IMG/VR virus record: IMGVR_UViG_3300027863_000649
Coordinates: 1 to 29,005 of that record
Origin: a virus
Taxonomy: Duplodnaviria > Caudoviricetes
Reading direction: 5' to 3' (one strand)
DNA length: 29,005 bases
A program made the position numbers and the translations under genes. Below, piece after piece: positions 5,162-21,759 of this stretch. Every line of letters begins with the position of its first letter. Within the stretch, counting starts at the first letter, position 1. The notes under the pieces are model-generated. The model ran no database searches and was not told the DNA's origin. It saw nothing but the letters and a program-made list of their open reading frames with translations.

Positions 5162-5800
5162 ATGATCGCGACAGTACTATTAAGTGGTGGTCTAGATTCG
5201 GGCACCTTACTGTTTAGGTTGTTGCGTGAGGGATATACGTGCATTCCGATTACGGTGAACTATGGTCAGAAACATGCAATCAGGGAGATCGAGTCTGCGT
5301 GTAAGTTACTAGAGTTTTTGGGTGACAGGATTGAGATGCGTTCGTGGAGACTTGTGTACGTTTCGGGACTGCGTATTGGCTCTGCGCTTACGTCTCCTGA
5401 CATTTCTGTTCCCGAAGGTGAGTATGTCGGTACGCCTAGTACGTTTGTGCCGGGAAGGAACGCGTTCTTGTTGTCGCTTGCGGCGGGTGTTGCAATGTCT
5501 GAGGGCGGTTCTGTGGCGGCGATAGGCGTACATGGGCGTGACTACCCTTATCCTGATTGCTCTCCTACTTTCATACGTGCTATGGACGAGGCGGTACAGC
5601 ACGCGACGTCCGGACATGTACGCGTTTACGCGCCGTACTTGGAGTACAGCAAGGCCGAAATAGTTCGCGAGGCACTTTACTTGGGCGTTCCTCTGGACGT
5701 GACTTGGAGCTGTTACGTTGGCGGAGATAAGCCGTGCGGTAAATGTCCGACGTGCATCGAGCGCAAACGTGCTCTTATGGAGGCGGGTGTGCCATGTTAA
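5162..5800 (+). CDS. queC: 7-cyano-7-deazaguanine synthase QueC
   Basis: PP-loop SGGLDS, YGQKH..E, TFVPGRN, YPDC and Zn site 'TWSCY...PCGKCPTC'. Confidence 0.95.
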   Translation: MIATVLLSGGLDSGTLLFRLLREGYTCIPITVNYGQKHAIREIESACKLLEFLGDRIEMRSWRLVYVSGLRIGSALTSPDISVPEGEYVGTPSTFVPGRNAFLLSLAAGVAMSEGGSVAAIGVHGRDYPYPDCSPTFIRAMDEAVQHATSGHVRVYAPYLEYSKAEIVREALYLGVPLDVTWSCYVGGDKPCGKCPTCIERKRALMEAGVPC

Positions 5801-6825
5801 AGGGTTTGTTGAAGAAGCCTGTCGAGGAAGGCGTAACTGTTCCGTACTGGCGTGCTAGTGAGGCGGGTAGGTGTGAGACGTACTTGGTACGTTCTCGTTT
5901 AGGCCATGGAGCATATGTGCCTACGAGGATTCAGTACATGCTTGAGGACGGAAGGTACCACGAGCGTACAGTTTTGGCGGCTCTCAGACAGGTTGGGTGT
6001 GCACTCCGTTTCGTCTCGGATGACGACGGGCAGATAGAGGTGAAGTGCAGTGACAGTCCCAGAATAATTGGGCATCCAGACGGACTCGTGCGTATAGAGT
6101 CTACAGACGACTTCGACAGGATAGGGGCTAACTTCAGTTCGGGTGGCTGGTTGTTGTTGGAGATCACAGGCGTTAGTCCGTTCGTGTTTCAGCGCTTGCG
6201 TATGAGCGGATTAGCTGATGTGATCCCTACTAAATACGCACAGATTCAGTGCTACCTGCATTCCGAGCTTCGTAATGAGGGGGTAAATTCTTGCGTGTTC
6301 GTCGCTAAAGACAAGGCGAGTTGGAACGTGTACGAAGAAGGTGTGGGTGTCGATGACGTGTGTTTCGAGTCGGTTCGGCAGAAGCTGTACAGGTGTGAGG
6401 AGTTCTTGGGTGAGGGGATCGTTCCCGAGTATCGGTGTAGCGGGAGTGAGGCGACGTTGTGCAAGTACAGAAAGCTGTGCTTCGACGAAGTTACGTTTCC
6501 GTCTCGCACTTCGGAGACGCTTGATGTGGAATCGCTCTCAGACGAGCTGAGGGGCGAGCTCAGTAATGCGCTGAGGATGTGGAAACGCTACAAGAACATA
6601 CGAGATGAGTCTGACGAGGTCGTGGAGGAGTGTAGGGAGTACGTCTTTAACCTGCTCAGAGTTAATGGTGCGATGTCCTTGAAGTATGAGGGGGTCGTAG
6701 CGGCGATCAGGCACAGGAACAACGTGTCGATAGACCGTGAGATCCTAAAGCTCTATCCCGAGGTTTATGAGAAGGTCGTCAGGCTTTCGGAATCTGAGTA
6801 CGTAACGCTTAAGGAGGTGTTATGA
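5794..6825 (+). CDS. Cas4-like / PD-(D/E)XK exonuclease with Fe-S cysteines and C-terminal helical extension
   Basis: 'ASEAGRC', 'GRYHE', 'GHPDG', 'LLEIT', 'AQIQCY' and 'C-x7-CKYRKLC'. Start moved to ATG 5794 (GGAGG upstream). Confidence 0.75.
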   Translation: MLKGLLKKPVEEGVTVPYWRASEAGRCETYLVRSRLGHGAYVPTRIQYMLEDGRYHERTVLAALRQVGCALRFVSDDDGQIEVKCSDSPRIIGHPDGLVRIESTDDFDRIGANFSSGGWLLLEITGVSPFVFQRLRMSGLADVIPTKYAQIQCYLHSELRNEGVNSCVFVAKDKASWNVYEEGVGVDDVCFESVRQKLYRCEEFLGEGIVPEYRCSGSEATLCKYRKLCFDEVTFPSRTSETLDVESLSDELRGELSNALRMWKRYKNIRDESDEVVEECREYVFNLLRVNGAMSLKYEGVVAAIRHRNNVSIDREILKLYPEVYEKVVRLSESEYVTLKEVL

Positions 6826-7160
6826 TTATTGGCGTAGTTCGGACGTTCGATGCCGCACACAGACTTTTAGGCTATTCGGGGAAGTGTAACAGGTTACACG
6901 GACATACGTACAAGCTGATCGTGGAGATTGCGGGAGAGGTTGGTAGGGACGGAATGGTTATGGATTTCGCTACTCTCAAGGGGAGTGTAGACAAGGTCGT
7001 TAGTGATCTTGATCACTCTTACTTGAATGACGTGTTGTCTAGTGAGCCAACGTGTGAAGAGACTGTTGCGTACATCGTACGGAAACTCAGTAATCTTCCA
7101 CTGCATCGTGTCGTTTTGTACGAGACGCCTACTGCGTATGCGTTATGGGAGAGAACGTAG
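6822..7160 (+). CDS. queD: 6-carboxy-5,6,7,8-tetrahydropterin synthase QueD
   Basis: 'FDAAHRL', 'CNRLHGHTY', 'GMVMDF', 'LDHSYLN', 'PTCE' and 'LYET'. Confidence 0.95.
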   Translation: MIIGVVRTFDAAHRLLGYSGKCNRLHGHTYKLIVEIAGEVGRDGMVMDFATLKGSVDKVVSDLDHSYLNDVLSSEPTCEETVAYIVRKLSNLPLHRVVLYETPTAYALWERT

Positions 7161-7483
7161 TGCGTACAGGTAGTACGGTACGGATGCTTACAGGCTGTGG
7201 GCATCTGTACGTTACTGTAAACGTAGACGACTCAGGTAGGCCTATAGAGGTATTTGCGTACTTGGGTAAGGCGGGGTCGTGTATGCGGTGCATGCTCGAG
7301 GGCCTCACTAGAGTTGTCACACTTTCCCTTAAGCATGGTGTTCCTGTAGGTGAGGTGGTGAACCAACTTGTCGAACTGCGATGTCCACGTCCTCTGAACT
7401 TTCCTCGTGAGTTGCGTGCGACGAGTTGTGTGGATGCGGTCGCTAGAGCATTACGTGGAGGAGAGAGTAATGGGACTACTTAA
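7145..7483 (+). CDS. Stand-alone TSCPD-domain protein (like the C-terminal domain of class II ribonucleotide reductase NrdJ)
   Basis: 'TGCGHLYVTVN...PIEVF..LGKAGSC...LRC...TSCVDAVARAL'. Confidence 0.85.
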   Translation: MGENVVRTGSTVRMLTGCGHLYVTVNVDDSGRPIEVFAYLGKAGSCMRCMLEGLTRVVTLSLKHGVPVGEVVNQLVELRCPRPLNFPRELRATSCVDAVARALRGGESNGTT

Positions 7484-7769
7484 GAGGCTTGTCTACTATC
7501 CCTACTACTTCCTTTATCCATGGTGCATAGTGAGTGTGGAAGAGAGGGGGAAGTTGCCTTGGTGGAAAGTGCCTGGCTGGATGTTGTTTCATTTGGGTGT
7601 GCCTCGAAAAGGCATTACTGCGAAGGAGCTTGGTATGTACGTGCACCTACATATTGCTCCCGAGAGGCATAAGTGTGTGTGTGGCAGGTACTACTGGACA
7701 CTTAGGAAGTCGACGAAGTTTTGCGGCAGTTTTGACTGCTTCATGAAGATGCGAGAGGAGCGGAGATGA
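7470..7769 (+). CDS. Hypothetical protein with C-terminal Cys4 zinc-finger-like motif
   Basis: GGAGG SD before ATG 7470; 'CVCG...KFCGSFDC'. Confidence 0.65.
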   Translation: MGLLKRLVYYPYYFLYPWCIVSVEERGKLPWWKVPGWMLFHLGVPRKGITAKELGMYVHLHIAPERHKCVCGRYYWTLRKSTKFCGSFDCFMKMREERR

Positions 7770-8314
7770 TCGATCAGTCTAGGGTAGAGGGAATCATTCG
7801 TGAGCTTTTGATTGCGTTGGGTCAGGACCTTGAACGTGACGACTTGAAGGAGACACCTTCTCGAGTCGCCAGAATGTACATAGAACAGTGTACTGAACTA
7901 CCTTGTGAGCTTAAGGTGTTTCACGACCGTTACGACGAGCTGGTTATTGTGCGTGACATCCCGGTTACTAGTTTCTGCGCACATCACCTACTTCCATGGT
8001 TTGGGTACGCTAGCGTCGGCTACTTGCCATCGAAGAACGTTGTAGGCATAAGTAAGCTGGCACGCCTTGTACATACGTGTTGCAGGGGCTTTACGATTCA
8101 AGAGGAGGTGACTAGGAAGATTGCTGACACGCTGTACGGAGAGCTAGCGCCCAAAGGCTGTGCGGTCGTGATAAAGGCCTTTCATACGTGCATGAACTTG
8201 CGCGGTGCGAAGTGTGTAGATGCCAGCACTGTGACATCGTCTGTGCGCGGCGCCTTACGTGACGTGTCGTCGCTTCGGTATGAATTTTTGTCGCTTATAG
8301 GAGGAGAACGATGA
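7766..8314 (+). CDS. folE: GTP cyclohydrolase I FolE
   Basis: 'ETPSRVARMY', 'SFCAHHLLP', 'GISKLAR', 'IQEE' and 'HTCMNLRG'. Confidence 0.95.
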   Translation: MIDQSRVEGIIRELLIALGQDLERDDLKETPSRVARMYIEQCTELPCELKVFHDRYDELVIVRDIPVTSFCAHHLLPWFGYASVGYLPSKNVVGISKLARLVHTCCRGFTIQEEVTRKIADTLYGELAPKGCAVVIKAFHTCMNLRGAKCVDASTVTSSVRGALRDVSSLRYEFLSLIGGER

Positions 8315-9066
8315 AGGTTTCCTTGACACAGCCCATTCAGCTTTTGCGACATCCTCTTTTTGAGAGTGATTACTATCTGGTCTTGGCGCACATGGTCTTG
8401 AGAGATGCTGATTATAGTGCGTACTATTTTGAGAGGGAAGCTTTCAAAATTCTTGATAACTCAGCTGTCGAGTCGGGTGCTGAGTCTGTGAAATGGGCGA
8501 ACTTGGTATGTGCCGTCTCTATGGTGCGTCCTAACGTAGTGGTGTTGCCTGACGTTATGTTTGACGCAGAAGAGACCATGCGACGAACATTAGAGGTTCT
8601 GGACTCGCCTATGTTGAAGGTCCTCAAGAGACTCTTCAACGTGGAGCTTTTGGCGGTGGTTCAGGGTAGTACACCTGATATTTGGTTGCACTGTTTCGAG
8701 GTGTTTAACAGCGACGAGCGTATCGATTACTTGGGCGTTCCGATGCTTACTACGGAGCTGTTCGGAAGGCGGAGCAAGGCACTTAAGGCGATAGAGAAAA
8801 GTGTCCGAAAGCCGTGTCATCTTTTTGGTACGTGGTACTCAACACCTCTACGCGATGTGGTTGAGGAAGCGAAGTATGATTTCGTTATGGGTGTAGATTC
8901 ATCCAAACCTATACGTTTGGCACTTGAAGGAAGGCGTATTGACGACGACGGTGCTGTCGTAGACAAGCATGACAAGGAGTATTTCTACAGGAAATACGAC
9001 GTAGACGAGGACCTGTTGCGTTACAATTGTGAGACGTTCAGGAGGTGGTGTGGTGCTCAAAAGTGA
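8311..9066 (+). CDS. dpdA: TGT/DpdA-like TIM-barrel protein, putative DNA deazaguanine transglycosylase
   Basis: TGT-like motifs in order: 'ILDNS', 'VLPD', 'AVVQG', 'YLGVP', 'HLFG' and 'GVDSS'. Coupled to folE within the queC/queD/folE cluster. Confidence 0.65.
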   Translation: MKVSLTQPIQLLRHPLFESDYYLVLAHMVLRDADYSAYYFEREAFKILDNSAVESGAESVKWANLVCAVSMVRPNVVVLPDVMFDAEETMRRTLEVLDSPMLKVLKRLFNVELLAVVQGSTPDIWLHCFEVFNSDERIDYLGVPMLTTELFGRRSKALKAIEKSVRKPCHLFGTWYSTPLRDVVEEAKYDFVMGVDSSKPIRLALEGRRIDDDGAVVDKHDKEYFYRKYDVDEDLLRYNCETFRRWCGAQK

Positions 9067-11380
9067 GAGGTGCGTAGGGTGCCCTGCGTACAGTGCACCC
9101 GGACCAGTGCCTTCTGAACTCAACGGCGTCGTCGGTTTTGACGTGAAGGGTAGTACCGACGTAGTGTTCGTGGGCGAGGCACCTGGTAACTGGGAAGTGG
9201 CTTATGGGCGTCCTTTCGCTAACCCTACTGGTGCGGGTGGTCTGCTTCGTCAGTGTCTGGAGCAGATTGGCATACGTCGTTTTGGACTTTTGAATGTATG
9301 GAAGTGTGTATGTAAGGACGTTTTCGGTGTTCACAGTGTTTGCGCTGATGCGTTGAAGGATGAGCTCGCACGTATCAGCTGTAAGGTCGTCGTGACTCTA
9401 GGAAGTGTAGCGCTACGTGAGGTGGCTGGATTTCCAGACGTTAACGTGATGCAGGTACGCGGGAGACTGTTTAGCGTTAACGGGATGAAGGTTCTGTCAC
9501 TTCTTCACCCTGCTTTCTTGCTGAGGAGTCCTGGCTATTGGCGTGAGTGGGAGTTGGGCTTGTTGAAGTTGAAGAGGGTGTTGGAGGGCAGGAGTGACTA
9601 CATACCTACTGAGATGCGTGAGGTTACGCACTGCACGACACAAGAGTCGGCGATCAGGGCTCTAGACGTACTTGAACGTTTCTCGACGTATGCGTGTGAC
9701 GTAGAGACTGCCTCGTTTAACGCACCCTGGCAGAACGGCGAGCTGTTAACTGTGTCGATTGCGTACGCGAAGGACAAGGCTTTTGCCTTCGATGTTGGTG
9801 TGTTGAAGGGGGAGGTCTTCGAGCGCATGAAGCGTCTCTTCGAAGACACTAGTCGTACGTGGATATGGTACAACGGTATCTTCGACATACAGTTCTTTCA
9901 TGCGTTGGGCATAAACGCGCGTATTGACAGGGATGCGATGTTGGAGGCACACTTGCTGGACGAGCGTGACGCGGTGCACTCACTAAAGAGGGATTGTGCT
10001 GTGTTACTGGACCAGCGTGACTGGGAGGCCGATTTAGGAGAGCTGGACATACCCAACGACACGTCCGAGCGTGCACAGCAAATGTGGCGAGAGATTCCTC
10101 GTGAGAAGTTACTGGAGTACAATGGCCAAGACGCCATGCACACGTTTCACCTGAGCGAGCTGGTGCGTGAGCTGCTTGAGCCTTGCTGTGTGCGTTACGC
10201 CGACACTCTTCTGGCGCCGACGTACAATATGCTAGCTGACGCACGTCGAGTAGGGTTGTGTGTGGATCTGGAACGTGTTAAGCAGTTGATGGGTCGTATT
10301 CGGCCTGTTCTAGACGAGATAACAGCGCGACTCGTGGAGTACAGTGGTGACAAGTACTTTAACCCTAACAGTCACGTGCAACGTAAGGCCCTTTTGCGTA
10401 AGTGCGGTCTGAACGTGGAGGACACTAGACGAGAGACGCTGGCCAAGTACGTGGAGTCGAGTGAGGTCGTGCGTGCTCTTATGGAGTACGCCGAGGCTCA
10501 CAAGATCTTCTCTACGTACGTTGAAGGTATTGTAGACGATATTGCAAGTGACGGAAGGGTGCATCCAGACTGGAAGTTGCCTGCAGTGACCGGAAGGTTG
10601 AGGTGTAGCAATCCCAACCTTCTAGGTATACCAAGGAAGGCTGAGGTGCAGGAGCATAAGTGGAAGCGGTACGTTAAGGAGCAGTTCGTGTCTGCGCCGG
10701 GGCATCTGTTTGTGCATATAGACAGGAAGCAGTCAGAAGTGCGTTGTGCATGCTTCCTTGCTGGTGACGAGAAGCTTTCAGGGATTCTCAAGTCTGGAAG
10801 GGACCTGCATTCGGAAGTTGCGAGACTGATGTATGGCGAAGGGTTCACGAAGGAGCAACGTGTAGCCGCCAAGATGATAGTTTTCGGTCTCATCTACAAT
10901 CGCGGCGCGGGGTCGCTGTCTCAACAGATGGGTGTTACTGTTGAAGAGGCTAAAGACATGATGGACAAGTTCTTTAGTCAGATGCCTCGTTTGATGGTGT
11001 GGAGACGAGAGGTCATACGAGAGTCGAAGTCAAAAGGGTACCTGCAGTCTTACTTTGGACGCATACGTCATTTCGGACTGATTACGCGTGACAACTGTGT
11101 AACCGTAGAGAACGAGTCTGTCAACTTTCCAATTTCCGCGTTGAGCAACGAGCTCAACTTACTCTGTTGTGTCGAGACTCACAAGCGCTTCGGTAAGTAC
11201 GGTGTGCAGGTGCTTGTACCTATACATGATGCGGCACTCATACAACTGCCTGTACAAGGTCACGAAAGCCTTGTTAGTGAGATAAGTGGATTTTGGGAGA
11301 GTTATGTACCTGAGCTGTTGGGTACTGATTTACCTTTCGGGGTAGATGTTACCGTAGGCGAAAGGTGGAGCGAGCTTTAA
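9053..11380 (+). CDS. polA: Family A DNA polymerase with N-terminal family-4 uracil-DNA glycosylase-like domain and 3'-5' exonuclease
   Basis: UDG: CxxC, 'VFVGEAPG', 'GRPF', 'LHPA'. Exonuclease: 'DVET', 'NGIFD', 'YNGQD'. Polymerase: 'TGRL', motif A 'DRKQSEVR', B 'RVAAKMIVFGLIY', C 'IHDA'. AGGAGG at 9040-9045 favours GTG 9053 (9050 possible). Confidence 0.93.
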   Translation: MLKSERCVGCPAYSAPGPVPSELNGVVGFDVKGSTDVVFVGEAPGNWEVAYGRPFANPTGAGGLLRQCLEQIGIRRFGLLNVWKCVCKDVFGVHSVCADALKDELARISCKVVVTLGSVALREVAGFPDVNVMQVRGRLFSVNGMKVLSLLHPAFLLRSPGYWREWELGLLKLKRVLEGRSDYIPTEMREVTHCTTQESAIRALDVLERFSTYACDVETASFNAPWQNGELLTVSIAYAKDKAFAFDVGVLKGEVFERMKRLFEDTSRTWIWYNGIFDIQFFHALGINARIDRDAMLEAHLLDERDAVHSLKRDCAVLLDQRDWEADLGELDIPNDTSERAQQMWREIPREKLLEYNGQDAMHTFHLSELVRELLEPCCVRYADTLLAPTYNMLADARRVGLCVDLERVKQLMGRIRPVLDEITARLVEYSGDKYFNPNSHVQRKALLRKCGLNVEDTRRETLAKYVESSEVVRALMEYAEAHKIFSTYVEGIVDDIASDGRVHPDWKLPAVTGRLRCSNPNLLGIPRKAEVQEHKWKRYVKEQFVSAPGHLFVHIDRKQSEVRCACFLAGDEKLSGILKSGRDLHSEVARLMYGEGFTKEQRVAAKMIVFGLIYNRGAGSLSQQMGVTVEEAKDMMDKFFSQMPRLMVWRREVIRESKSKGYLQSYFGRIRHFGLITRDNCVTVENESVNFPISALSNELNLLCCVETHKRFGKYGVQVLVPIHDAALIQLPVQGHESLVSEISGFWESYVPELLGTDLPFGVDVTVGERWSEL

Positions 11381-11399
11381 CATCCCCAAAACACTTCAT

Positions 11400-11440
11400 A
11401 TTAGTAGGCCCTTGTTTGAAGTTAATAATGGTGGTATAAT
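11400..11440 (+). promoter_or_regulatory. Sigma70-type promoter P2 (structural operon) with ATTAGT-N3-CCCTTG motif
   Basis: TTGTTT (11412-11417), 17-bp spacer, TG-n-TATAAT (11435-11440), then GAAAGGAGGT SD. Confidence 0.8.
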
Positions 11441-11472
11441 TAGGTAAAGTAAAATGAAAGGAGGTTTGCACA

Positions 11473-11715
11473 ATGGCACCGAAGAAGTGGGCTGAGCTTA
11501 CTCCCGAAGAGAAGCGGAAGAGACTCGACTATGCACGCAGACGCCGGCAGTTACTGACCGCAAAACTTCGCGAGCTCGGAATCGTCGGAGCGCCTCGGAC
11601 CAAGATGTCTGAGGAAGAGAGGAAGCAGAAGCGTTACGAGTACGCCAAGTCCTACAACAAGCGCATCCGCGAGCAGGCCAAGCTGTATCGCCAGCTTATG
11701 GAAAAAGGTATGTAG
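11473..11715 (+). CDS. Small highly basic helical protein, putative virion DNA-binding protein
   Basis: K/R-rich, with an internal duplication (LTPEEKRKRLDYARR / MSEEERKQKRYEYAKS). First gene after P2 with a very strong SD. Confidence 0.65.
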   Translation: MAPKKWAELTPEEKRKRLDYARRRRQLLTAKLRELGIVGAPRTKMSEEERKQKRYEYAKSYNKRIREQAKLYRQLMEKGM

Positions 11716-11750
11716 TGCTGGGTGTTGACTTCTGAAGGAGGAAGGAGAGC

Positions 11751-11957
11751 ATGACGACAATTGTTATCAACGCCCTGATTGCAGGGCTGTTGGGCGCGAT
11801 CGCGATCGTAGTGACCCACCAGATCGTTTCGGGTGAGGACACTACGGGATGGTCGTCCGCGACCTCATCGATGTTTGCGTTGATTCCGACTGTGGTGGGG
11901 ATCGTGGTCATTGTGGGCATGTTTGTGCTGCTCACTAAGATCAGAGGCGGCGACTAG
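11751..11957 (+). CDS. Putative major capsid protein, two-hydrophobic-helix (spindle-shaped virus-like) type
   Basis: 68 aa: hydrophobic helix, polar S/T/G loop (SGEDTTGWSSATSS), 'ALIP' plus second hydrophobic helix, basic C-terminal KIR. Strong SD; followed by a stable hairpin. Confidence 0.65.
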   Translation: MTTIVINALIAGLLGAIAIVVTHQIVSGEDTTGWSSATSSMFALIPTVVGIVVIVGMFVLLTKIRGGD

Positions 11958-11967
11958 GCTCACGGAA

Positions 11968-11996
11968 GAGGGCGCTCGTTATACGCGAGCGCCCTC
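11968..11996 (+). terminator. GC-rich 11-bp hairpin after the capsid candidate (attenuator or mRNA 3' stabiliser)
   Basis: GAGGGCGCTCG-TTATACG-CGAGCGCCCTC perfect stem; no following U-tract. Confidence 0.65.
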
Positions 11997-12008
11997 CCCT
12001 AAATCCCG

Positions 12009-15000
12009 ATGACTGACATTGTTTATGAAGGACACACTATAACTAGTCTTCAGGAAGCTAAAGCGGCCGGACCCACAGCTTACGAGATGTATAAGGCCGC
12101 TAACGCTCCTGCGGTAACCCCCTCTGCGCCTCCTACGACTCCCCCTTCTACGACTCCCCCTTCTACGACTCCCTCTCCTACGACTCCTGCAGAGCTTATA
12201 CAAGCAGCTCGAGAGGCTGAGGCAAAAGGCCAGACAGAGGAGGCTCGAGAGCTACGTTCTCAGCTAGAAGAGGTAATGACAGCTGAGAAGGAGAAGACGT
12301 TTGGTAGGCTTCTAACTCAGAGTGCTCTTCAGGAGACCGGTGCGAAGCTTGCGGTAAGCCCCGAAACGGGTGAGGCAGCTATCTTGGAGCCTCATGTAAA
12401 GGTTCCAGAGGGCTGGGAGGTTAAGCGGGCTACTGAGGCCGAGCTACAGAAGTACGGCATGTATACAACCGCGCCTACGGGCGTGACCTACTACACGGAG
12501 TATAGGCCTTACCAGGTAGTTGACGAGTCTGGTAAGGTACTCTACACCGTAACCGAGTCTGCACAGAGATCTGGCTTGGCACCTAAGTATGAAGAGGCTC
12601 GTAAGAGCATGCAGGAAGGTCTAGTGCCTAAAGTAGAGGGCACTAGCGTGAAGTTCGTTCCCAGAGAGGAACCTAAGACACCAGTAAGCGAACCTCCTAA
12701 ACAGGTGAGCTCTAGTATGTTTAGTCTTGACCCTGAGAAGGTCAAGACGTACTTGAGCGATGAGCTTGAGCGCTATCGTCGTAGTGACGGAAGCTACGAC
12801 GTTCGTAAGTATATCGAAGACGTCGAGTCCGGTAAAGGACCTAAACACCTCACTATTTCCGCTATTACTGCTGTCGTTCCTTACGATCAGGTAATGACAG
12901 TCTGGAATGACATGCATACGGCCGATCCCGCCTCAGGGTTGTACTATCGAAAGGCCGATCTCTTCCAGAATTGGGGAGAGCGTCTACCGGACGGCTCCTA
13001 TACAGGCAAGATCCTTTGGGACAAGTTCCATAGGGATCTAGGAGCGTCTATGGCTTGGGAGCAGGTGCTTAAGTCTGGTAGTGTTGACCTGGAGGAGATC
13101 AAGAAGGTTGGAGGTTTTACAGGCGTAGAGGCCGCTCAGGATGTACTTGAGCAGTTCAAGAGTCTTCCCGAAAAAGATCAGAGGTACATACAACAATACG
13201 GCCTTCATGCCTATATAGACAAGCTCGAGCTCGACGAACGCCAGCGTAAGGACGCCGAAGCAGTCATCAGAATGTTTGACAAGGAGGGCGATCCTGTTAA
13301 GTTTGCGGTGCTGGCTACTCAGGCTAAAGGCGTAAAGGCTACTGAGAAGGGTGTTTTTGAGGTCCTTGTAGCGGCTGGCTATTCGGCCAAGGACGCCGCA
13401 CAGATCGTGAAGATAGCTCGCGATACGCCTCGTTACATGATTAAGCCTGAAGGCTTCGCAGAGGGTGTTGCCAAGTCGGCCGCAGAACTGATGCAGAAGA
13501 CTACCGAGGCCATAGACAAGGTAGCTGGTAAGCTAGCTGAAGGCGCTATAGCGCCTGTAGCTTTTACTCCTGGGGCTAAAACTTCAGAGAAGGTAGTGAA
13601 GGGTCTCATTAAGGGTGGTATAGACTTCTTCACTGTACCTGTAACCGCAGTCGAGACCCTTACAGTCGCTGGAGCACAAGCGTTTGCTAAAGACTATCTT
13701 GGTGCTCTTGAGACCTTCGGATCTCTCGCACCAGTTACGTACATACACAAGGCTGGCAAGGGAGAGTTTATTGGCTTCGGACCAGCGGCCTTGAAGGCGA
13801 TCGAGCAAGACCCTTACGTAGCGGTGCCCGAAAACATCGTACTGTTCGCACCTATCGTTGCTAAAGGTGTCACGAGCGCTATCAGTACCGTAAAGGGTAC
13901 GAAAGCCATCCTGAGTCCTCACGAAATCCATCCCAAGACAGTAACGATAGAGATGTCGGTACCCTCGGCGGTGATACCCGACGGAATGGTGGAGCTCGCT
14001 GCTCGGCAGAAGGTTGAGTCTGCTATCTTGAAGACGCTAACTGGTGGGACCGACTTCGAGGCTACAGCCGCTAAAGCCTTGCGTTCGGTCAGTGACGCGA
14101 TCGAGCAGGCCCATAAGTTCGGTCACGACGTAGTGATAAAGGACGCTGAAGGCAAGGTCGCTTTCAGGCTAACTCCCGCAAACAGGTTTGAGCCCACACT
14201 TCTGTACAAGGTCGTGCCAGACGCTACGTTCGTGCAGGATGCTGTCGAGGCTGGCATGCCTGTAGAGGTAAAAGGTAGAAGCGGTATTGCTTTCTGGTCA
14301 CTTCACGCCCCACTCAGTTTCGTGTCGATATTTGAGTCTCCTACGGATCCTGCCGTTCTAGCGACTAGAGTTACGTGGAAGGACATCAAGCCTCTTCCAC
14401 GTGACGTCATAAACCAGCCAACCTTGAGTGCCATGTACCGCAAGATGATGGAGATGGTACAAGAGGGTAAGCTCGAGAAGGGCTTCTATCCAGTGTTCAA
14501 GCGTTGGCAGGACAAGATTGAGCTGGAACTGGTGTCTACGGAAAACTTTCCGCTTCAGCCTGTAAGGCCTACGTGGTACACACAACCTTTCCGTAGAGGC
14601 GTCGCCACGGATATCGACCTAAACAGCATGTTGAAGCAACTCAAGGACGACAAGCACATCGTCTTCGACCTGGACTACACTCTCGTAGATGGTAATGGAC
14701 GCCCTTACCGCGGAGCCAAACAGCTTATAGAGGAGCTACGGAAACAGGGTAAGGAAGTAAGTCTGTGGACGCATTCCGAGAGAGCTCGCGCTGAGGGGCT
14801 CCTACGCAACATGGGTCTGGATCCCTCAGTGTTTAAGAACTTCATAACTCGAGAAGACTACGAGCCTACTGGACTTCACCCGTACGCTTACAAGGACATC
14901 AGCAAGATTGGTGGCGACAGGCTCGTAGACGATAGCAAGGTACAGAAGAGTCTTCAAGGCGGGAAGCAGTTGTACCCTAAGTTGATGAAAGTAGAGACGC

Positions 15001-16889
15001 CGTCTGGGATAGCCGCTATGCGCACTTACCTTCCCCACAAGTTCATCGGTCCTGACGGCAAGGTACTCAAGGAAGGTACAGCTATCCCGCTCTACTTCCT
15101 GCTTACCGACAGTGCCTTGAAGGAGGGTCGCACCCTTCCTACGTCGCGAAGCCTAATGCTTGCATCTGCCTTCACACTTATTCATGGACTTCGAGAGTTG
15201 GCGTCTTGGCGTCCGGGTCATGCAACGTTTGGGTACTACGGTGGTAAGTTGCTCCCATTCTACTCGACGTTGAGAGCTCTAGAGTTTGAAGCTGCTGACA
15301 CCATTAGTGCTCCTACTAGGCATTCTGCACTCATCACGAACGAGAGAGGTGAGGTGCTACTTGTAAGGCAGAAAGGCACTGATAGGTACGATCTACCGGG
15401 CGGTAGCGAGCTGTGGAAGCAAGGGTTCTTTAAACGTCGTGAGAACCAGGTTGAGGCTCTCCGTCGCGAGATCTCGGAGGAGACAGGTCTAGAATCCAAG
15501 AGAATGGACTACCTAGGTAGGCTTCGGAGTGCGTTTGACGTCGAGCCTCGCACCTTCGACATCTATCGTGTCGACACAGAAGGTGCGCCTAGAGTCAGGT
15601 CGAGCAGTAAAATACTCGAGTACGTGTGGTGGGACGGTAAGTCTCCTTATGTCAGGGATCCTGTAACAGGAGAGCCCATAAGAGTTGCCAAGTTTGTGAT
15701 AGACGCTATGAATGCGTTCGGTAGCCGGAAGCCTTCAGTACATTTGACTACCGTAAACACCAGTAGCTTGCCTGACACTGGAGTAGGGGCTATCGTAAGG
15801 AATGCGATTGAACGCTACAAGGAAGCTCTTGGAGAAGAGTTCGAGACGTTTGCGAGGGATGTCGAGCGGAGAGCTAGTGACATGTCTCGCAGAACTGGCA
15901 AGGACATGGACGAGTGTGTTCGCAAGGTCCTAGATGAGGAGCTACGCAAGTCTGACATATCTAGGGAAGCTCTTGAGTCCTTGACAGATGAAGAAAGAGA
16001 GGCTCTGGACGAATTTCGTGCGTTTAACGTCAACTACATTCTTCCCAAGCTGACTAGCAGATACGCAGTAGTTGGGCTGGACGAGCTGGACCTGAGAGAG
16101 GTGCCTAGTTCGCAGGTGTCTCCCAAGGAAGTCAGTGTAGAGAGGGTTGAGCCTCTAGACACCCAGATATCCAGCATCGCTAGGCGGATCGACGAGGAGC
16201 TCCCTGACCTCAGTCCGGTGTACGAGGACGTGAGAATACCTGACGTAGAGGTGAGTGACTTCGCTGAGGAACGTGTACCTGAAGGGGAACGTGTACCACC
16301 ACCCGAAGAGGGCGTACCACCTAAAGGGGAACGTGTACCACCACCCGAAGAGGGCGTACCACCTGAAGAGAGCGTACCACCCAAACTTACTGTACCTCCA
16401 GAAGAACAGATACCACCAGCTGAGCGTACGCCTCCACCGCCCCTTACACCACCGTCGCCGGAAGAACGCATCCCTCCGCCTGCAGGAGGTGTAGTCGAGG
16501 AGGAGAAGGTTAAAGGAGAGGAACCTGCACCCGTAGCGTGGAGGCAAGGCTTCGGGTGGTGGGTTATCAAGCCTCCATACCAAACCAACGAAGACATTTA
16601 CTTCGTATATGGTGACGATTCTAGCAAGTTGCCAGCGGGCGTTAAGTTGGTTCGGGGTGGGCCAGGCTCCGCCTACAGAGCTATTCAGGCGTTGGGCTAC
16701 GTGCCCGCTTCCGAGATAAAGCTTGACTTGGGCTTTCAGGACGTTATCATCAGAAGGCCTTCTACGCCAGGCCGTCCGGGAGCAATTACCTACATTCCCG
16801 ACAGACACGGGCGTACTCGCCATAGTATCAGCGTAACGAGAGGTATAAAGCAGTTGAGGGAGAGTGCTTATGAAAAGGAGAGCAAGTAA
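12009..16889 (+). CDS. Giant (1626 aa) multidomain protein with HAD phosphatase and Nudix hydrolase domains and Pro-rich linkers
   Basis: HAD: 'IVFDLDYTL', 'LWTHS', K, 'LVDDS' (~14655-14950). Nudix box-like 'LPGG...ENQVEALRREISEETGL' (~15321-15710). No signal peptide; located in the structural block. Confidence 0.85.
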   Translation: MTDIVYEGHTITSLQEAKAAGPTAYEMYKAANAPAVTPSAPPTTPPSTTPPSTTPSPTTPAELIQAAREAEAKGQTEEARELRSQLEEVMTAEKEKTFGRLLTQSALQETGAKLAVSPETGEAAILEPHVKVPEGWEVKRATEAELQKYGMYTTAPTGVTYYTEYRPYQVVDESGKVLYTVTESAQRSGLAPKYEEARKSMQEGLVPKVEGTSVKFVPREEPKTPVSEPPKQVSSSMFSLDPEKVKTYLSDELERYRRSDGSYDVRKYIEDVESGKGPKHLTISAITAVVPYDQVMTVWNDMHTADPASGLYYRKADLFQNWGERLPDGSYTGKILWDKFHRDLGASMAWEQVLKSGSVDLEEIKKVGGFTGVEAAQDVLEQFKSLPEKDQRYIQQYGLHAYIDKLELDERQRKDAEAVIRMFDKEGDPVKFAVLATQAKGVKATEKGVFEVLVAAGYSAKDAAQIVKIARDTPRYMIKPEGFAEGVAKSAAELMQKTTEAIDKVAGKLAEGAIAPVAFTPGAKTSEKVVKGLIKGGIDFFTVPVTAVETLTVAGAQAFAKDYLGALETFGSLAPVTYIHKAGKGEFIGFGPAALKAIEQDPYVAVPENIVLFAPIVAKGVTSAISTVKGTKAILSPHEIHPKTVTIEMSVPSAVIPDGMVELAARQKVESAILKTLTGGTDFEATAAKALRSVSDAIEQAHKFGHDVVIKDAEGKVAFRLTPANRFEPTLLYKVVPDATFVQDAVEAGMPVEVKGRSGIAFWSLHAPLSFVSIFESPTDPAVLATRVTWKDIKPLPRDVINQPTLSAMYRKMMEMVQEGKLEKGFYPVFKRWQDKIELELVSTENFPLQPVRPTWYTQPFRRGVATDIDLNSMLKQLKDDKHIVFDLDYTLVDGNGRPYRGAKQLIEELRKQGKEVSLWTHSERARAEGLLRNMGLDPSVFKNFITREDYEPTGLHPYAYKDISKIGGDRLVDDSKVQKSLQGGKQLYPKLMKVETPSGIAAMRTYLPHKFIGPDGKVLKEGTAIPLYFLLTDSALKEGRTLPTSRSLMLASAFTLIHGLRELASWRPGHATFGYYGGKLLPFYSTLRALEFEAADTISAPTRHSALITNERGEVLLVRQKGTDRYDLPGGSELWKQGFFKRRENQVEALRREISEETGLESKRMDYLGRLRSAFDVEPRTFDIYRVDTEGAPRVRSSSKILEYVWWDGKSPYVRDPVTGEPIRVAKFVIDAMNAFGSRKPSVHLTTVNTSSLPDTGVGAIVRNAIERYKEALGEEFETFARDVERRASDMSRRTGKDMDECVRKVLDEELRKSDISREALESLTDEEREALDEFRAFNVNYILPKLTSRYAVVGLDELDLREVPSSQVSPKEVSVERVEPLDTQISSIARRIDEELPDLSPVYEDVRIPDVEVSDFAEERVPEGERVPPPEEGVPPKGERVPPPEEGVPPEESVPPKLTVPPEEQIPPAERTPPPPLTPPSPEERIPPPAGGVVEEEKVKGEEPAPVAWRQGFGWWVIKPPYQTNEDIYFVYGDDSSKLPAGVKLVRGGPGSAYRAIQALGYVPASEIKLDLGFQDVIIRRPSTPGRPGAITYIPDRHGRTRHSISVTRGIKQLRESAYEKESK
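12133..12188 (+). repeat. 15-bp coding tandem repeat, ~4 copies (TTPPS)
   Basis: CTACGACTCCCCCTT units encoding PTTPPSTTPPSTTPSPTTP. Confidence 0.9.
16269..16400 (+). repeat. 42-bp coding tandem repeat plus degenerate copies (GERVPPPEEGVPP)
   Basis: AAGGGGAACGTGTACCACCACCCGAAGAGGGCGTACCACCT occurs twice (16282-16322 and 16324-16364). Confidence 0.9.
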
Positions 16890-17253
16890 ACCTGTCCAAC
16901 AGTTCTTCACTGCTGGAGACTTCAAGTACGAGCCGACGTATTCGGTACCTGGCAGAATGTACTTCTACGTATGGGGCTACACGAAATCTGGTCGAGAAGT
17001 ACTGAGAGGTCCGATCACGTCTCGCGAGGTAGCGATCCAGAAACTGGCTGAACTCTCCGACGGTGACATATTCGAGCTACCTACTCGAAATCTTGCGGCG
17101 GCTACACGCACTATAAAGGAGAAACTTTCCGACAGAGGCATAGGCGTAGATGAAGTACTCAAGCCTATGCTTCACGAGAAGGGGTACGCCAGAGAGGTAG
17201 AAAAGGAACTGCAGAGCCAGCGTGCTCAGATTGGGCGGAAATGGTTAGGATAG
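16870..17253 (+). CDS. Hypothetical protein (127 aa)
   Basis: GAGGGAG SD before ATG 16870; overlaps both neighbours. Confidence 0.7.
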   Translation: MKRRASKPVQQFFTAGDFKYEPTYSVPGRMYFYVWGYTKSGREVLRGPITSREVAIQKLAELSDGDIFELPTRNLAAATRTIKEKLSDRGIGVDEVLKPMLHEKGYAREVEKELQSQRAQIGRKWLG

Positions 17254-18188
17254 CTCTGTCTCTAGTACTAGTTCTAGTCGCGCTAGCCTTCGCTGGTAGT
17301 GCGTTTGCTATCGGCACGCCGGATTCGATGGTGATAGGCGCAGTAGACTGGTACTGTAACTGTGCTACGGAAGGTGATGCGTTAATAGTCATACAGTACT
17401 ACGTACATTACGCAACCCTTCCAGCTGAGCACATGAGTGATGCGTTCATATTCAGGTTGCGTGACAACGTAGGTACTCTGGCGGCAACTACGTCCTACGA
17501 CTTCTACAACTATGGGTACGGCAGAGGAATTGTCTCGATGTACTTGAGTGGTACGTACACCTACGAAGGTGACTATAAGGTAGTCTTGTCTGGAAACCCC
17601 GCACTGTCATGGACCTCCGGAGTGCCACAAGTGGAGTCTACTAACATAACGTGGCACGATGAGTGTGACTCTCTAGGCAATAAGGTGTTGAGTATTGCTG
17701 ACAACCTTTCGAAGTATTGGACTGATGTAGTTCTGGTCTCTAGTGGGCCTGCGGGATACACACTAACTAGTACGGGTGCGCATTACTTTACGATGTCCAT
17801 ACCACACCTTCAGGATATGGCACCAGGTATCTTCTCTGGATACAGCATTCCGCCCGAATTCGAGAGCGATGAGTTTGACGACGAGTACTTCTGGTCTACG
17901 TCACTGGAGGGGACTGAGATAGAGGATAACTTCCAGAAGCTCGCAGACGCTCTACATCTTCCTGTAAGTGTTACCAAGGTGCTTTTGTGGATGGTCCCAA
18001 CACTGATGATAGGATCCTTTATTACGTTGGCAATAAGGGATCCGTCACCCATACCACTACTGATACTGCCCATGCTTCCTGCAGGCTACCTTGCAGGAAT
18101 GCTTCCCATACACTTTACAGTAGTGGTAGGACTGCTCGCAACGATCGCGGCGGCATACATCATATACTACAGGACAGCATCAGGATGA
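17241..18188 (+). CDS. Exported membrane-anchored protein (signal peptide, beta-rich ectodomain, C-terminal ~3 TM anchor)
   Basis: MVRIALSLVLVLVALAFAGSAFA signal peptide; hydrophobic C-terminal ~70 aa. Confidence 0.8.
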   Translation: MVRIALSLVLVLVALAFAGSAFAIGTPDSMVIGAVDWYCNCATEGDALIVIQYYVHYATLPAEHMSDAFIFRLRDNVGTLAATTSYDFYNYGYGRGIVSMYLSGTYTYEGDYKVVLSGNPALSWTSGVPQVESTNITWHDECDSLGNKVLSIADNLSKYWTDVVLVSSGPAGYTLTSTGAHYFTMSIPHLQDMAPGIFSGYSIPPEFESDEFDDEYFWSTSLEGTEIEDNFQKLADALHLPVSVTKVLLWMVPTLMIGSFITLAIRDPSPIPLLILPMLPAGYLAGMLPIHFTVVVGLLATIAAAYIIYYRTASG

Positions 18189-21100
18189 AACGCGCACTAG
18201 CCTTGTTACTCGTAGTCATACTTCTGCTCATACCTAGTAGCGTATGGGCAGATGCCAGTAGCCTTATAGACTCGGAACTCATACCTTCGGGTACTACCGT
18301 AGGTAGCAACGACACCGCACTATTTGAGCTGTCTGAAGAGCTGCGTACTTACGGAATACTATATCCCGACTCAACAGCAGCTGAGCTTGCTACCTACAGC
18401 ATCTCGTCAACTGGAACGATCACCCTGGTAGACAACGCTAGTATAGGAGTTAACCCTTACCAGATTGGCAATAGAGTAGAGCACGTTGTAGAAGACATAT
18501 ATGCATATGTCTATAGCACTTCCGTAGGTGGCTACTACAGAATTACTGCACGGACTCAGCACATTAACGACGGTGGTGCGATAGGCTCAGTAATCCAGAC
18601 CTTACAGCTATCCGTCGAATCCGCCTACGACTACAAGTATCCGAGCATCATAAAGGTACCCGATACGGAGTACTACCTAGTAGTTAGCGAGAGATATGCC
18701 TCAGGCAGTAGAAGAATTACGGTACACGTACTGCGTATAGACTCTACCACGCCGGGTAACTACGGTGCCATAACCGAAATATCACGTACTAACGTATACA
18801 CTCCTAGTGCTAACATATCGAACATAGGCATAAGTCACTATGATACTACGACAGCCTACTCCTACTTCCTGATCAGTTATCTAATGTCTAACTCTCTGTA
18901 CGTATGTGGACTTACATTCAACAGAACGACTCATGCGGTGGCAGCCCCTTGGAACTCGTCGCTAGGGAGCGTAACTTCGGCCTCCCTCTATGACAACATA
19001 CCGACAGTACTTCACGATTACGGTTACGACTATGGACTGTGCTTGTCGTCTATCAGCGACAGCTCCAATAAGGTAATCAAGCATATTACCTATCAGGTAT
19101 CAGGGACATTCTCGTACTGTACGGTGATAGACACTCTTACTCTGACAACAACGCCGACGTTTAAGACTACTACAACACCTATCCATCTGAACTCAACCAA
19201 GTGGGGCTTTACCATTGGTTACACTGCTACAGGTATAGCCTTAGTGTACGGTGCAACCTTTACCATTCTTTCGAACGGAACTATGCCATTGGCTCAGTTT
19301 AGTGGGTTCACGTCTCATAGCGTAAACGTACCTTCGCCTACCTCGATGGCAGCTACTGCTCAGCAACAATACAAGTTTGCAGGATCGTGCTCAGTAGTCT
19401 TAGCGGACTCGGGTAACATATGTACGCTATCCTACAATGTCGAGCCAGACGTGTCTATAGATAGCATCACGAACGTCACGGAGACAGGTTTTAGGGTTAG
19501 TGGCACTGTTGTAGATGTCGGATCGTTTGCGGTAACTGAAATAGGTGCATGCTGGAACACCATAGGCTACCCAACGAAGTCCGATAGTTATACCGGAGTG
19601 GCTACGTTTATAGACGCGCCAGATACGCCCTACAACTTCAGTATAGACGTTAGTGGAGTGGATACGGGAACCTTGCATTACGTGCGTACCTACGCCACTA
19701 ACGCTATCGGGAGTGGCTACAGTACTACAGACTTGCCAGTGCAGTACGTAGGGCCACCAAGTAATCTGACGGTTAATCCCGTCAGTAGTAATGCGTGTAA
19801 CCTGAGTTGGACAAAAGGCATCGGCGCAGAGATGACGATGATCAGAGGAGCTTTCGGAAGCTATCCTAGCGGTACTGCTTCCGGGACAGAAGTGTACTAC
19901 GGTTCAGGCACTACGACGTATTTCTCGGGTCCGAACTTCGCCATTGGCACGTACTACTTTAGGGCATGGAGCCGTTCAGTCTTGGGTCTCTGGTCAGAAG
20001 GGTATGCTCAGACTACTACTGGATACGAATCCTTGAAATGTTACATTCCAGTTTACGCAACGAACTCGAGCACTAACAGTTATGACGCTCTTCCTGTTAG
20101 CGTAAGCCTGAACAACGAGGCGCTAGCCGACGGCGGATACATCAGTGAGGAAGGGCTCGACGTCAAGGCGTTTTACGGAACTAACAGGCCCGTTATGGTA
20201 GCAGACGACAGAACGATGTTCGTCCTAGACTTCGGTCCTGGAGAGCAAGCGTACGTAGAGCTACAGCTTATGGAGACGCCTTCGGACTCCTTCTACTTAA
20301 TACCGGGTCACAACGGGTACGTGACTACTTCCGATAGTGCAACTCTAGAGCCCGGAAGTAACGACTTCGAGCTCACAATTGTAGGATGGGTAGACCCTAC
20401 GTCATCAGGCACACTGGCCAGGAAGAGTGGAGCTCTTGAGCTTTACGTGTCGGGGACGCATACCATTGCCGCTAACGTGTATACAGGTGCTACGTGTCAT
20501 GTAGAAGGGACTATAGATGAGGATTACCACACAGTAACGCTATCTCGTAGTGGTGGGACATTGTCGCTGGTCGTTGACACCGTAACTGTAGGTAGCACCA
20601 GTATTTCAGGTTCGGTGGTGGACAATACAAACAATTGGACCTTCATGTCTGGGAACTCTCTGGTCTACGCCGAAAGCATTAGCTGGAAGGTAGGTGGGTC
20701 TACGGTTCTGAGGTACAAGCCCGAACGGATGGTGCGGGATAGTACCGTAGAAGACTTGGTTGGTAGTAATGACGGCACGATTACTTGGGGAAGCAACGTT
20801 GCCGAGGTCAGTGTTGATCCACTAGTGTGTCCTTACGAGGCTACCTACGCTCCGACGATCAGAAGAGGTACCACCTACGTAACTGAGATCCCGAATATAG
20901 ACACTCAGATGGAGAGTGGTGGTGGCGAGCTTCCGCTTCTCGAGCCTGTAGTCAGACTAGTACAAGACTACACCAACTTACCTGCTGGTCTGATAAGGAT
21001 GCTGGGTGCGCTGATGTTCTGTATGATCGTAGGCGTAGGCATATACATGTATATGCAATCGCTAGTGTTCGTAGCTGTGTCGACATGCACGCTCATGATC

Positions 21101-21199
21101 GCGTTCTGGCTTATGGATATACTTCCCTACTGGATTGTATACCCATATTGCGTGATCGCGCTCGCGATGTTAATACTGAGGAGAGCTCCTTCACTGTGA
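18185..21199 (+). CDS. Large adhesin/spike-like protein (1004 aa): signal peptide, S/T/Y-rich beta domains including FN3-like and LamG-like regions, C-terminal ~3 TM anchor
   Basis: True start ATG 18185 (ATGA overlap), MKRALALLLVVILLLIPSSVWA. FN3-like 'HYVRTYATNAIGSGYS' and 'PPSNLTV...LSWTKG...TYYFRAWS'; LamG-like 'YHTVTLSRSGGTLSLVVD'. Confidence 0.8.
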   Translation: MKRALALLLVVILLLIPSSVWADASSLIDSELIPSGTTVGSNDTALFELSEELRTYGILYPDSTAAELATYSISSTGTITLVDNASIGVNPYQIGNRVEHVVEDIYAYVYSTSVGGYYRITARTQHINDGGAIGSVIQTLQLSVESAYDYKYPSIIKVPDTEYYLVVSERYASGSRRITVHVLRIDSTTPGNYGAITEISRTNVYTPSANISNIGISHYDTTTAYSYFLISYLMSNSLYVCGLTFNRTTHAVAAPWNSSLGSVTSASLYDNIPTVLHDYGYDYGLCLSSISDSSNKVIKHITYQVSGTFSYCTVIDTLTLTTTPTFKTTTTPIHLNSTKWGFTIGYTATGIALVYGATFTILSNGTMPLAQFSGFTSHSVNVPSPTSMAATAQQQYKFAGSCSVVLADSGNICTLSYNVEPDVSIDSITNVTETGFRVSGTVVDVGSFAVTEIGACWNTIGYPTKSDSYTGVATFIDAPDTPYNFSIDVSGVDTGTLHYVRTYATNAIGSGYSTTDLPVQYVGPPSNLTVNPVSSNACNLSWTKGIGAEMTMIRGAFGSYPSGTASGTEVYYGSGTTTYFSGPNFAIGTYYFRAWSRSVLGLWSEGYAQTTTGYESLKCYIPVYATNSSTNSYDALPVSVSLNNEALADGGYISEEGLDVKAFYGTNRPVMVADDRTMFVLDFGPGEQAYVELQLMETPSDSFYLIPGHNGYVTTSDSATLEPGSNDFELTIVGWVDPTSSGTLARKSGALELYVSGTHTIAANVYTGATCHVEGTIDEDYHTVTLSRSGGTLSLVVDTVTVGSTSISGSVVDNTNNWTFMSGNSLVYAESISWKVGGSTVLRYKPERMVRDSTVEDLVGSNDGTITWGSNVAEVSVDPLVCPYEATYAPTIRRGTTYVTEIPNIDTQMESGGGELPLLEPVVRLVQDYTNLPAGLIRMLGALMFCMIVGVGIYMYMQSLVFVAVSTCTLMIAFWLMDILPYWIVYPYCVIALAMLILRRAPSL

Positions 21200-21759
21200 C
21201 TGGTGCTAAACTGTTTGCGTTCTTCGCGACCTGCTTCGCTCTTGGACAGCTATTCAGCGGAATAGCACAAGGACAGTGGGCGTATGCTACGACTACCCTG
21301 GCCATTGATACCTCAGCTACGAGCACTACAATAACGGTAGTGAGTACAGAGAACTTCCTCTCAGGCCCAGACGAGATAACGATCGGAGACGAATCCATAC
21401 GTTACAACAGCAAGGACGACACTCACTTCTACGGGGTTACTAGAGGGATTGACGACACTACAGCAACGGCACATGTCGCTGGAGAAGTCGTAATGAATCG
21501 TAACAGCAACATCATAAACAACATTCTGGGGTACAACGTAGCGGCGACTTCGGCTTCGTATGGTAGCTTGAGTGCGATAGTAGGTCTGCTCTGGAACTCT
21601 GTAAAGGCGATTCCACGAATGATTGCTTGGAACTACTCATATCTAGATGGTCATTTAGCGATGCTTAAGTACCTGATACTGTGGCCGATTTCGGCGGGCT
21701 TCATATTCAGTTTAGGAATCGTAGCCATGGTACTAGCTAGGGGTATATTCAACGTATGA
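21196..21759 (+). CDS. Membrane protein with small beta domain, probably structural
   Basis: GTG start overlapping the upstream TGA. N-terminal hydrophobic segment, 'TTLA...TTITVVST...VTRG..DTTATAHVAG' module and C-terminal TM. Confidence 0.7.
   Translation: MTGAKLFAFFATCFALGQLFSGIAQGQWAYATTTLAIDTSATSTTITVVSTENFLSGPDEITIGDESIRYNSKDDTHFYGVTRGIDDTTATAHVAGEVVMNRNSNIINNILGYNVAATSASYGSLSAIVGLLWNSVKAIPRMIAWNYSYLDGHLAMLKYLILWPISAGFIFSLGIVAMVLARGIFNV

Follow-up and report, generated by a model that had tools for sequence, protein, structure and literature searches.

The lemon-shaped particle of spindle viruses is built by its major protein out of seven sliding helical strands, and VP1 of fuselloviruses is synthesised as a precursor carrying extra residues at its N terminus. 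In His1 the major capsid protein is presumably ORF21, which the His1 record annotates as a hypothetical protein with two transmembrane segments. Spindle-shaped virions are described as archaea-specific (10.1101/2021.07.29.453957), and the large spindle viruses of ANME-1 have archaeal hosts and carry PolB, their enzymatic arm including QueCDEF, NrdD and ThyX (PMC9894754). We found one published bacterial case, IME1 of Dehalococcoides/Dehalogenimonas; this is a dsDNA element of 20-28 kb without tailed-phage hallmarks, with tyrosine recombinase integration, a primase-helicase, a pI-like ATPase and 14 core HOGs, whose small hydrophobic proteins HOG00/01 are structurally SSV1 VP1-like, for which budding or extrusion is proposed, and whose particle, which is unlinked, has been suggested to be a filament (10.64898/2026.09.15.751708).

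Here we analyse a two-gene unit in 29,005 nucleotides of viral DNA (the window), a linear IMG/VR virus record; it is a fragment, and its parent contig, carried by two hot-spring DNA runs, measures 39,171 bp or more. The unit's ORFs, signals, conservation and remote homology are established, and on balance we favour reading it as the source of a His1-related hairpin capsid protein and a basic DNA-condensing protein of a non-tailed dsDNA virus, probably of a bacterium. Its parts and the neighbouring genes that bear on it are as follows.

9053-11380, plus strand: fusion of UDG and family A DNA polymerase (UDG-PolA) directly upstream of the unit, in conserved synteny
11395-11440, plus strand: sigma70-type extended -10 promoter, assigned from its sequence, repeat families D7/D9 and conservation in relatives
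11458-11465, plus strand: Shine-Dalgarno (SD) sequence AAGGAGGT of the basic gene, with AGGAGG at 11459 and 8 nt to the ATG
11473-11715, plus strand: 80-aa basic two-helix protein, candidate DNA-condensing core protein
11735-11747, plus strand: double SD (AAGGAGG / AAGGAG) of the capsid gene, with AGGAGG at 11736 and 9 nt to the ATG
11751-11957, plus strand: 68-aa hydrophobic helical hairpin, remote His1_capsid (PF25665) homologue and likely major capsid protein
11968-11996, plus strand: 12-bp GC-rich stem-loop without a U-tract, assigned from its fold, at a position conserved in relatives
17241-22444, plus strand: block of secreted or membrane-anchored proteins, one of 1004 aa with a LamG domain; candidates for an adhesin and for minor virion proteins
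22794-23549, plus strand: Zot/pI-like ATPase without a transmembrane segment, candidate extrusion or packaging motor

The unit sits exactly on the border between a left arm encoding UvrD, Sak4, DUF669, QueC, QueD, FolE, Cas4 and UDG-PolA and a right arm encoding a 1626-aa HAD/Nudix protein, several membrane-anchored proteins, the ATPase and a ligase. The ATPase matches Pfam Zot (E 4e-12) and PHROG 197/1675 and, weakly, SSV1 B251 (P 6e-4); hydropathy shows no transmembrane segment. No capsid, portal or terminase family was recognised among the 34 window ORFs or the 28 ORFs of G001, a relative described below; because the window covers 29 kb of a contig that runs to 39 kb or more, genes for a head and tail could be encoded beyond its ends. 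An ORF of 187 aa (21196-21759) gives partial matches of 60-80 residues to PHROG tail/baseplate families, and no integrase or recombinase family appears among the 34 ORFs of this incomplete sequence. The genes at 5162-9066 (QueC, QueD, FolE and a conserved 251-aa ORF, phrog_20335) likely form a pathway that modifies DNA with 7-deazaguanine; three relatives (L004, L026, L036) also have a QueE-like radical SAM gene, of which none was seen in the window. A 558-aa ORF without a family match (1502-3178) shows degenerate family B polymerase motifs by eye, and close to the left end of G001 lies a gene whose product weakly matches DNA_pol_B_2 (E 0.008), PolA being encoded elsewhere in that record; BLASTP between the two proteins was not significant (best E 0.5). 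Separately, 25576-25635 recurs 430 nt past the window's right end in contigs from both runs, as a second paralogue of the repeat-protein gene 25382-25927.

IME1 is the closest published case, sharing with this virus a dsDNA genome, a bacterial host (probable here), no tailed-phage hallmarks, a pI-like ATPase, small hydrophobic proteins of SSV1 VP1-like structure and a proposed exit by budding or extrusion (10.64898/2026.09.15.751708). The window virus is not an IME1: its group is larger and has UDG-PolA, Sak4, Cas4, ligase and 7-deazaguanine genes, a separation drawn from published descriptions. It also lies outside Fuselloviridae and Halspiviridae. With His1 ORF21 its 68-aa protein shares a hydrophobic two-helix hairpin of ~70 aa, a T-x-x-W loop, an L/I-P kink and the lack of a leader; it differs in scoring under the family cut-off and in belonging to a genome of at least 39 kb (60-76 kb in relatives, against 14.5 kb for His1) with PolA, Que genes, bacterial-type promoters and an upstream basic gene. 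Fuselloviridae resemble it in the hairpin fold (SSV19, 7xdi_A, is the top match), in a capsid gene co-transcribed with a small basic gene and, weakly, in a B251-like soluble ATPase, whereas the sequence link to SSV1 VP1/VP3 is weak, the 68-aa ORF has no N-terminal pro-region, and the basic gene is unrelated to VP2 and stands upstream rather than downstream (the fusellovirus order is VP1-VP3-VP2). The Asgard wyrdviruses share a His1-like capsid, one or two capsid paralogues and a pI-like ATPase without a transmembrane segment, and the Itzamnaviridae/Tepeuviridae of ANME-1 share large genomes, the division into enzymatic and structural arms, QueCDEF, NrdD and ThyX; compared by description, those viruses have archaeal hosts and pPolB, RCRE or PolB, in contrast to PolA and sigma70 signals here. 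As a module, the hairpin capsid, soluble pI-like ATPase and adhesin work like His1/SSV1-type morphogenesis.

The preliminary description of this DNA had placed two ORFs, both SDs, a promoter-like site and a stem-loop in the unit, and all lie where it put them. The promoter comprises an upstream TTCATATTAGT element, a -35 box TTGTTT (11412-11417), 17 nt and TG-G-TATAAT (11432-11440). Taken singly, the site at 11412-11440 does not exceed shuffled sequence (p 0.115), and a stock scanner run over 11300-12200 called neither promoter nor terminator, since the -35 box has three of six matches and the stem-loop lacks a U-tract. The promoter is credible because its motif, TT(C/T)A(C/T)ATTAGT-N3/4-CCCTTG...TGnTATAAT, is repeated, with three copies in the window (137-182, 11395-11440 and 26698-26743). 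An element like TTCATATTAGT lies upstream in all three, possibly an operator or UP element, and 49-nt direct repeats of 96% identity (7-55 and 62-110) just precede the first, possibly an origin or terminal repeat region. The stem-loop folds at -27.6 kcal/mol (z -3.9), a value equalled by none of 200 shuffles; it is followed by CCCTAAAT, which holds no U-tract, so it is not a canonical intrinsic terminator and is a candidate 3' stabiliser or leaky terminator. Contigs from both hot-spring runs list no difference in 11473-11996, though the runs may be the window's own source. High expression, which had been proposed for the unit, would be suggested by its ATG starts and strong SDs, and codon bias gives no sign of it (NNC:NNT 17:8 vs 1110:646, p 0.68).

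The 68-aa protein has the size and fold of a spindle capsid protein, which run to ~70-80 aa with two hydrophobic helices in a hairpin: it is hydrophobic (GRAVY 1.29, pI 5.5) with two hydrophobic segments, and its AlphaFold model (pLDDT 91) shows a helix (2-28), a loop, a helix (36-43), an L-I-P break and a helix (45-66). Two details ascribed to it earlier do not hold, as the supposed S-T-G loop reads EDTTGWSS and the supposed basic tail is just K63 and R65 ahead of a terminal Asp. His1_capsid is the sole Pfam family at E<=0.1 (E 0.0075), with 16.7 bits in one scan and 19.7 in another against a gathering cut-off of 27. The protein has 28 homologues at 53-83% identity, and 25 of the 29 sequences in the resulting set match His1_capsid. 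A profile of these 29 rows, searched against 1.84 billion sequences, recovered 47 cluster representatives, including P0064 (E 5.7e-5), a full His1_capsid member (54 bits) and the one of 49 aligned homologues to pass the cut-off. HHalign of the 49-row alignment against His1 ORF21 gave a probability of 67 (P 5e-5), with the T-x-x-W loop motif and the L-P aligned, against 4.3 for SSV1 VP1 and 2.5 for VP3; the VP1/VP3-type capsid first suggested thus survives as a capsid, with the His1 family as its nearer relative. With P0064 removed from the profile, ORF21 still ranked top of 146 His1 reading-frame stretches (12.8 bits) and outscored every one of 14,319 decoys taken from 80 cellular loci, the best of which reached 8.7 bits, while SSV1 VP1 came fifth among SSV1 frames in the same scan.

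Structure comparisons add to this picture. The profile's top PDB match is SSV19 VP1 (7xdi_A, E 0.11), and Foldseek of the model also placed 7xdi_A first (prob 0.97, TM 0.74, rmsd 2.5, E 0.48; next <=0.30), with no match at E<=0.001 in structure searches including BFVD. The hairpin fold alone is generic, because VIA-align ties 7xdi (Z 7.1, rmsd 2.2, 66 aligned) with ATP-synthase c subunit (Z 8.1) and PsbZ (Z 7.5); a wide VIA search returned generic hairpins, with 7xdi absent among the best 50. ESM Atlas neighbours are virus clusters, some with His1_capsid (11%, 27%) or VP1_VP3 (29%), all under the naming bar. tblastn of capsid and ATPase found no match in phage and plasmid collections, and none of five virus records with a PolA-like protein carried the capsid gene. 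Each line of homology is weak, and the link to a known spindle capsid, though detectable through P0064 and the rank of ORF21, is weak in absolute terms; all lines point one way. From these profile comparisons the protein is very probably a homologue of the His1-type capsid family, and it is likely the major capsid protein. Four capsid homologues (P0048, P0054, P0056 and P0075) have long loop insertions rich in Cys or N-x-S/T and look minor-capsid-like.

Relatives of the unit were drawn from 32 metagenomic loci, of which one is the window virus (L001, 1 base difference in 20,204), several are near-duplicates and five lack upstream DNA, so that 26 non-self loci are informative. The basic gene stands upstream of the hairpin gene in 20 of these 26 and is missing or inverted in six (inverted in L022, not matched in L009, L013, L014, L020 and L023), and in L024 an ORF is inserted between the two genes. 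In G001, a virus record of 45.8 kb that was reached via the basic gene, that gene is immediately followed by a more distantly related capsid gene. PolA lies upstream of the unit in 11 non-self loci, and of 22 loci examined for one, 21 have a strong hairpin behind the capsid gene; these hairpins are unrelated in sequence and often come with a short U-run. Two capsid genes stand in tandem at four of the 32 loci, as also in fuselloviruses and wyrdviruses; the copies are near-identical in spite of diverged DNA (L019:152-566, L022:2676-3129, L023:580-1027, L024:4591-5089). Contigs of the family reach 60-76 kb. Several further observations concern the surroundings. Many relatives (L002, L004-L008, L012, L018, L021, L024, L029) have a conserved ORF of 64-72 aa behind the hairpin; the window has none there. 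A giant protein (1600-1940 aa, without a transmembrane segment) also follows the hairpin in many (e.g., L003, L004, L006, L029); these proteins are mostly unrelated in sequence, the window copy (12009-16889) has HAD and Nudix domains, and they are candidates for an internal, ejected protein. In L022, glycosyltransferase-like and UDP-GlcNAc 2-epimerase-like genes (by eye; 3-2443) lie beside the inverted basic gene and the capsid pair, possibly for capsid glycosylation. LAGLIDADG-like ORFs (motif by eye) are inserted at or near the unit in L024 (3953-4609) and upstream of the basic gene in L005 and L010. Leaders upstream of the basic gene form small hairpins in many relatives, with no single shared structure.

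Start codons set the window apart from its relatives. Both of its genes begin with ATG, whereas among 19 related loci with an intact 5' end the basic gene begins with ATA at 16 and with ATC, GTG and TTG at one each, never with ATG, behind an SD whose 8-nt spacing is identical in all; at six of the 19, a GTG directly after the start position makes an alternative start possible. The capsid gene at 29 loci begins with TTG (16), ATG (7), ATT (3), ATC (1) or GTG (1), with one misplaced coordinate, and its SD-to-start spacing in relatives is long (9-13 nt). Other conserved genes use ATG (14), GTG (4) and TTG (3) in 21 of 35 gene-locus pairs, the other 14 having no SD-anchored candidate and the script favouring canonical codons; since the loci are related, all these counts represent few independent events. 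Starts of ATA, ATC or ATT behind perfect SDs are limited to the two presumed major virion genes (basic gene: L003, L004, L005, L010, L011, L024-L028 and L036; capsid gene: L003-L005 and L024). In Staphylococcus aureus, one study reports that such starts behind extended SDs yield ~10-30% of AUG output (PMC13009471). The high-expression two-gene layout claimed earlier therefore describes the window, with its ATG starts and strong SDs, and does not extend, where initiation is concerned, to the family as a whole, given the ATA/ATC and TTG/ATT starts of relatives; initiation in the family seems to be damped behind a strong promoter, with the hot-spring member showing the undamped form. As a consequence of the near-cognate starts, gene callers miss or shorten the basic gene in most relatives, and a protein search with the basic protein returned the window's own protein alone. 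Neither non-AUG capsid starts in phages nor a PolA-bearing family of this kind was found described in the literature searched, most subscription papers being outside its coverage.

The role of the 80-aa protein is where an alternative has the most weight. The protein has 25 K/R and 11 D/E (pI 10.5), and its model (pTM 0.46) consists of two long helices, both basic, with a G-x-x-G-A-P-R linker between them, each helix opening by eye with a similar [LM][TS]xEExxxRxxY motif. It has no informative family or PDB match, and HHalign against SSV1 VP2 found no homology (probability 0.04); of the VP2-like nucleoid protein proposed in the preliminary description, the basic ORF is real, the VP2 kinship falls away, and the nucleoid role would stand by analogy. 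DNA binding is suggested by charge and shape, and packaging by gene position and by the protein-rich cores of spindle viruses, whose abundant core proteins are packaged according to a published study (PMC10589707); on this analogy the protein may be packaged as a core protein, a reading on which the evidence is evenly poised. It could instead be an intracellular regulator or nucleic-acid chaperone, acting in early-gene shut-off or binding its own leader, that is not packaged. The lack of VP2 homology, the inverted gene of L022, a faint resemblance (E 0.32) to the DNA-binding domain of CytR and the weak ATA/ATC start in 17 of 19 relatives, which would suit a dose-limited protein, are in keeping with this; the co-transcribed position before the capsid gene, held as far as distant relatives, the two tandem basic helices with no recognisable HTH, and the packaging of core proteins by other spindle viruses speak against it, and we regard a regulator as the less favoured but still serious possibility.

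The same proteins might also form a long filament, by extrusion with the pI-like ATPase or as an open tube of hairpin proteins, as proposed for IME1. A pI/Zot ATPase is indeed encoded, IME1 viral fractions are filament-rich (10.64898/2026.09.15.751708), and lemon capsids turn into tubes (PMC10589707). Yet the 68-aa protein has two hydrophobic helices from residue 2 and no signal peptide, none of the 49 aligned rows matches a pVIII family in Pfam or PHROG, the ATPase lacks the membrane anchor of pI, and family contigs of 60-76 kb compare with 4-11 kb for filamentous phages, as given in the IME1 report (10.64898/2026.09.15.751708). We consider a filament rather unlikely; for a lemon-shaped particle rather than a filament, the considerations weigh about equally for and against.

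As to the host, an exact TATAAT lies upstream of the basic gene at 11 of 16 loci, against 1.2 in shuffles (maximum 4), mostly preceded by TTGAC/TTGCC at 17-18 nt; the summed sigma70 score over the 16 is 155, against 124 in shuffles (maximum 135), a test that overstates independence because the loci are related. Units of promoter and SD number three in the window, none in SSV1 and none in His1. Among its best 25 matches in a phage collection, PolA found bacterial phages or one unassigned caudovirus (23-27% identity), and it resembles the UDG-PolA fusions of bacterial phages. An archaeal host, for instance a euryarchaeon with SD-led genes as in ANME-1 Itzamnaviridae, would make this an ordinary new archaeal spindle family, and it would agree with the archaeal hosts of all cultured spindle viruses (10.1101/2021.07.29.453957), the hot-spring source, a comparable division of the genome into an enzymatic arm and a structural arm, Que genes included, and an MCM-like helicase in G001. 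The conserved -35/-10 promoters with 17-18-nt spacing, an archaeal TATA pattern at none of the 16 promoter loci, the blank SSV1 and His1 controls, and a family A polymerase where large ANME-1 spindle viruses have PolB make it improbable. Judged from its sigma70 signals and UDG-PolA, the virus has with high probability a bacterial host.

A link to particular host genomes was also sought. No capsid relative was confirmed in GTDB contigs. Among 401 Dehalococcoidia-class genomes none had the ATPase or spacers matching 20 kb of window DNA, a 45-row ATPase profile found nothing in 361 genomes of the same phylum, and Zot, capsid and ATPase queries found nothing in dehalogenase-rich genomes (0/3 and 0/5); these blank searches show little, because no IME1 positive control was obtained. 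Three of the 401 genomes matched the capsid profile (E ~1e-5) inside frames of 212-492 aa, which we took as chance. Scanning genomes with PolA returned uracil-DNA glycosylase domains only, the genomes searched held no CRISPR spacer or provirus link, and protein cluster look-ups led to marine sediment and Tara metagenomes only. Chloroflexota as the host phylum would be a guess drawn from IME1.

Least probable is that the 68-aa protein, rather than forming the shell, acts as a holin or pilin or is some other small protein of the membrane: the hairpin fold is generic and one of 49 rows each matches a PHROG holin (E 0.045) and a PHROG pilin (E 0.012), but His1_capsid is the dominant family, the prepilin G/xxxxEY motif occurs in none of the 49, capsid identity is 70-83% among most close relatives against 50-60% for PolA, the gene has its own promoter, hairpin and tandem duplications, and no endolysin was recognised among 34 scanned ORFs, so that holin, pilin and inovirus pVIII, raised at the outset as possible better matches, all fit worse.

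Under the capsid and core-protein reading, host sigma70 RNA polymerase would start at the extended -10 promoter and make a short mRNA carrying both genes, and the stem-loop would stabilise its 3' end or halt most transcripts; we propose that the 68-aa and 80-aa proteins would thereby be made in excess of the minor virion proteins encoded further downstream. The hairpin, which has no leader, would enter the membrane, the basic helices of the 80-aa protein would coat the DNA and condense the genome inside the particle, and the soluble Zot/pI-like ATPase may move this nucleoprotein to the membrane, where hairpins would polymerise round it as sliding helical strands into a spindle or tube, with non-lytic release. 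The unit offers two small testable proteins, one for self-assembly and one for DNA compaction.

More tentatively, the unit may mark a widespread family of bacterial dsDNA viruses, large (60-76 kb) and lemon-shaped, that combines an archaeal His1-type protein shell and pI-like motor with a tailed-phage-style replication arm (UDG-PolA and the 7-deazaguanine pathway) and a novel two-helix nucleoid protein, and in which most members would hold back their two main virion genes with ATA/ATT/ATC/TTG starts behind perfect SDs; particle output would then follow the initiation stringency of the host (IF3). The main interest lies in the probable bacterial host and these throttled starts. If true, this would be a second, larger, self-replicating bacterial lineage, with a capsid closer to His1, and it would bear on which bacterial envelopes permit budding and on whether this virion design predates the split between bacteria and archaea or has crossed between the domains.
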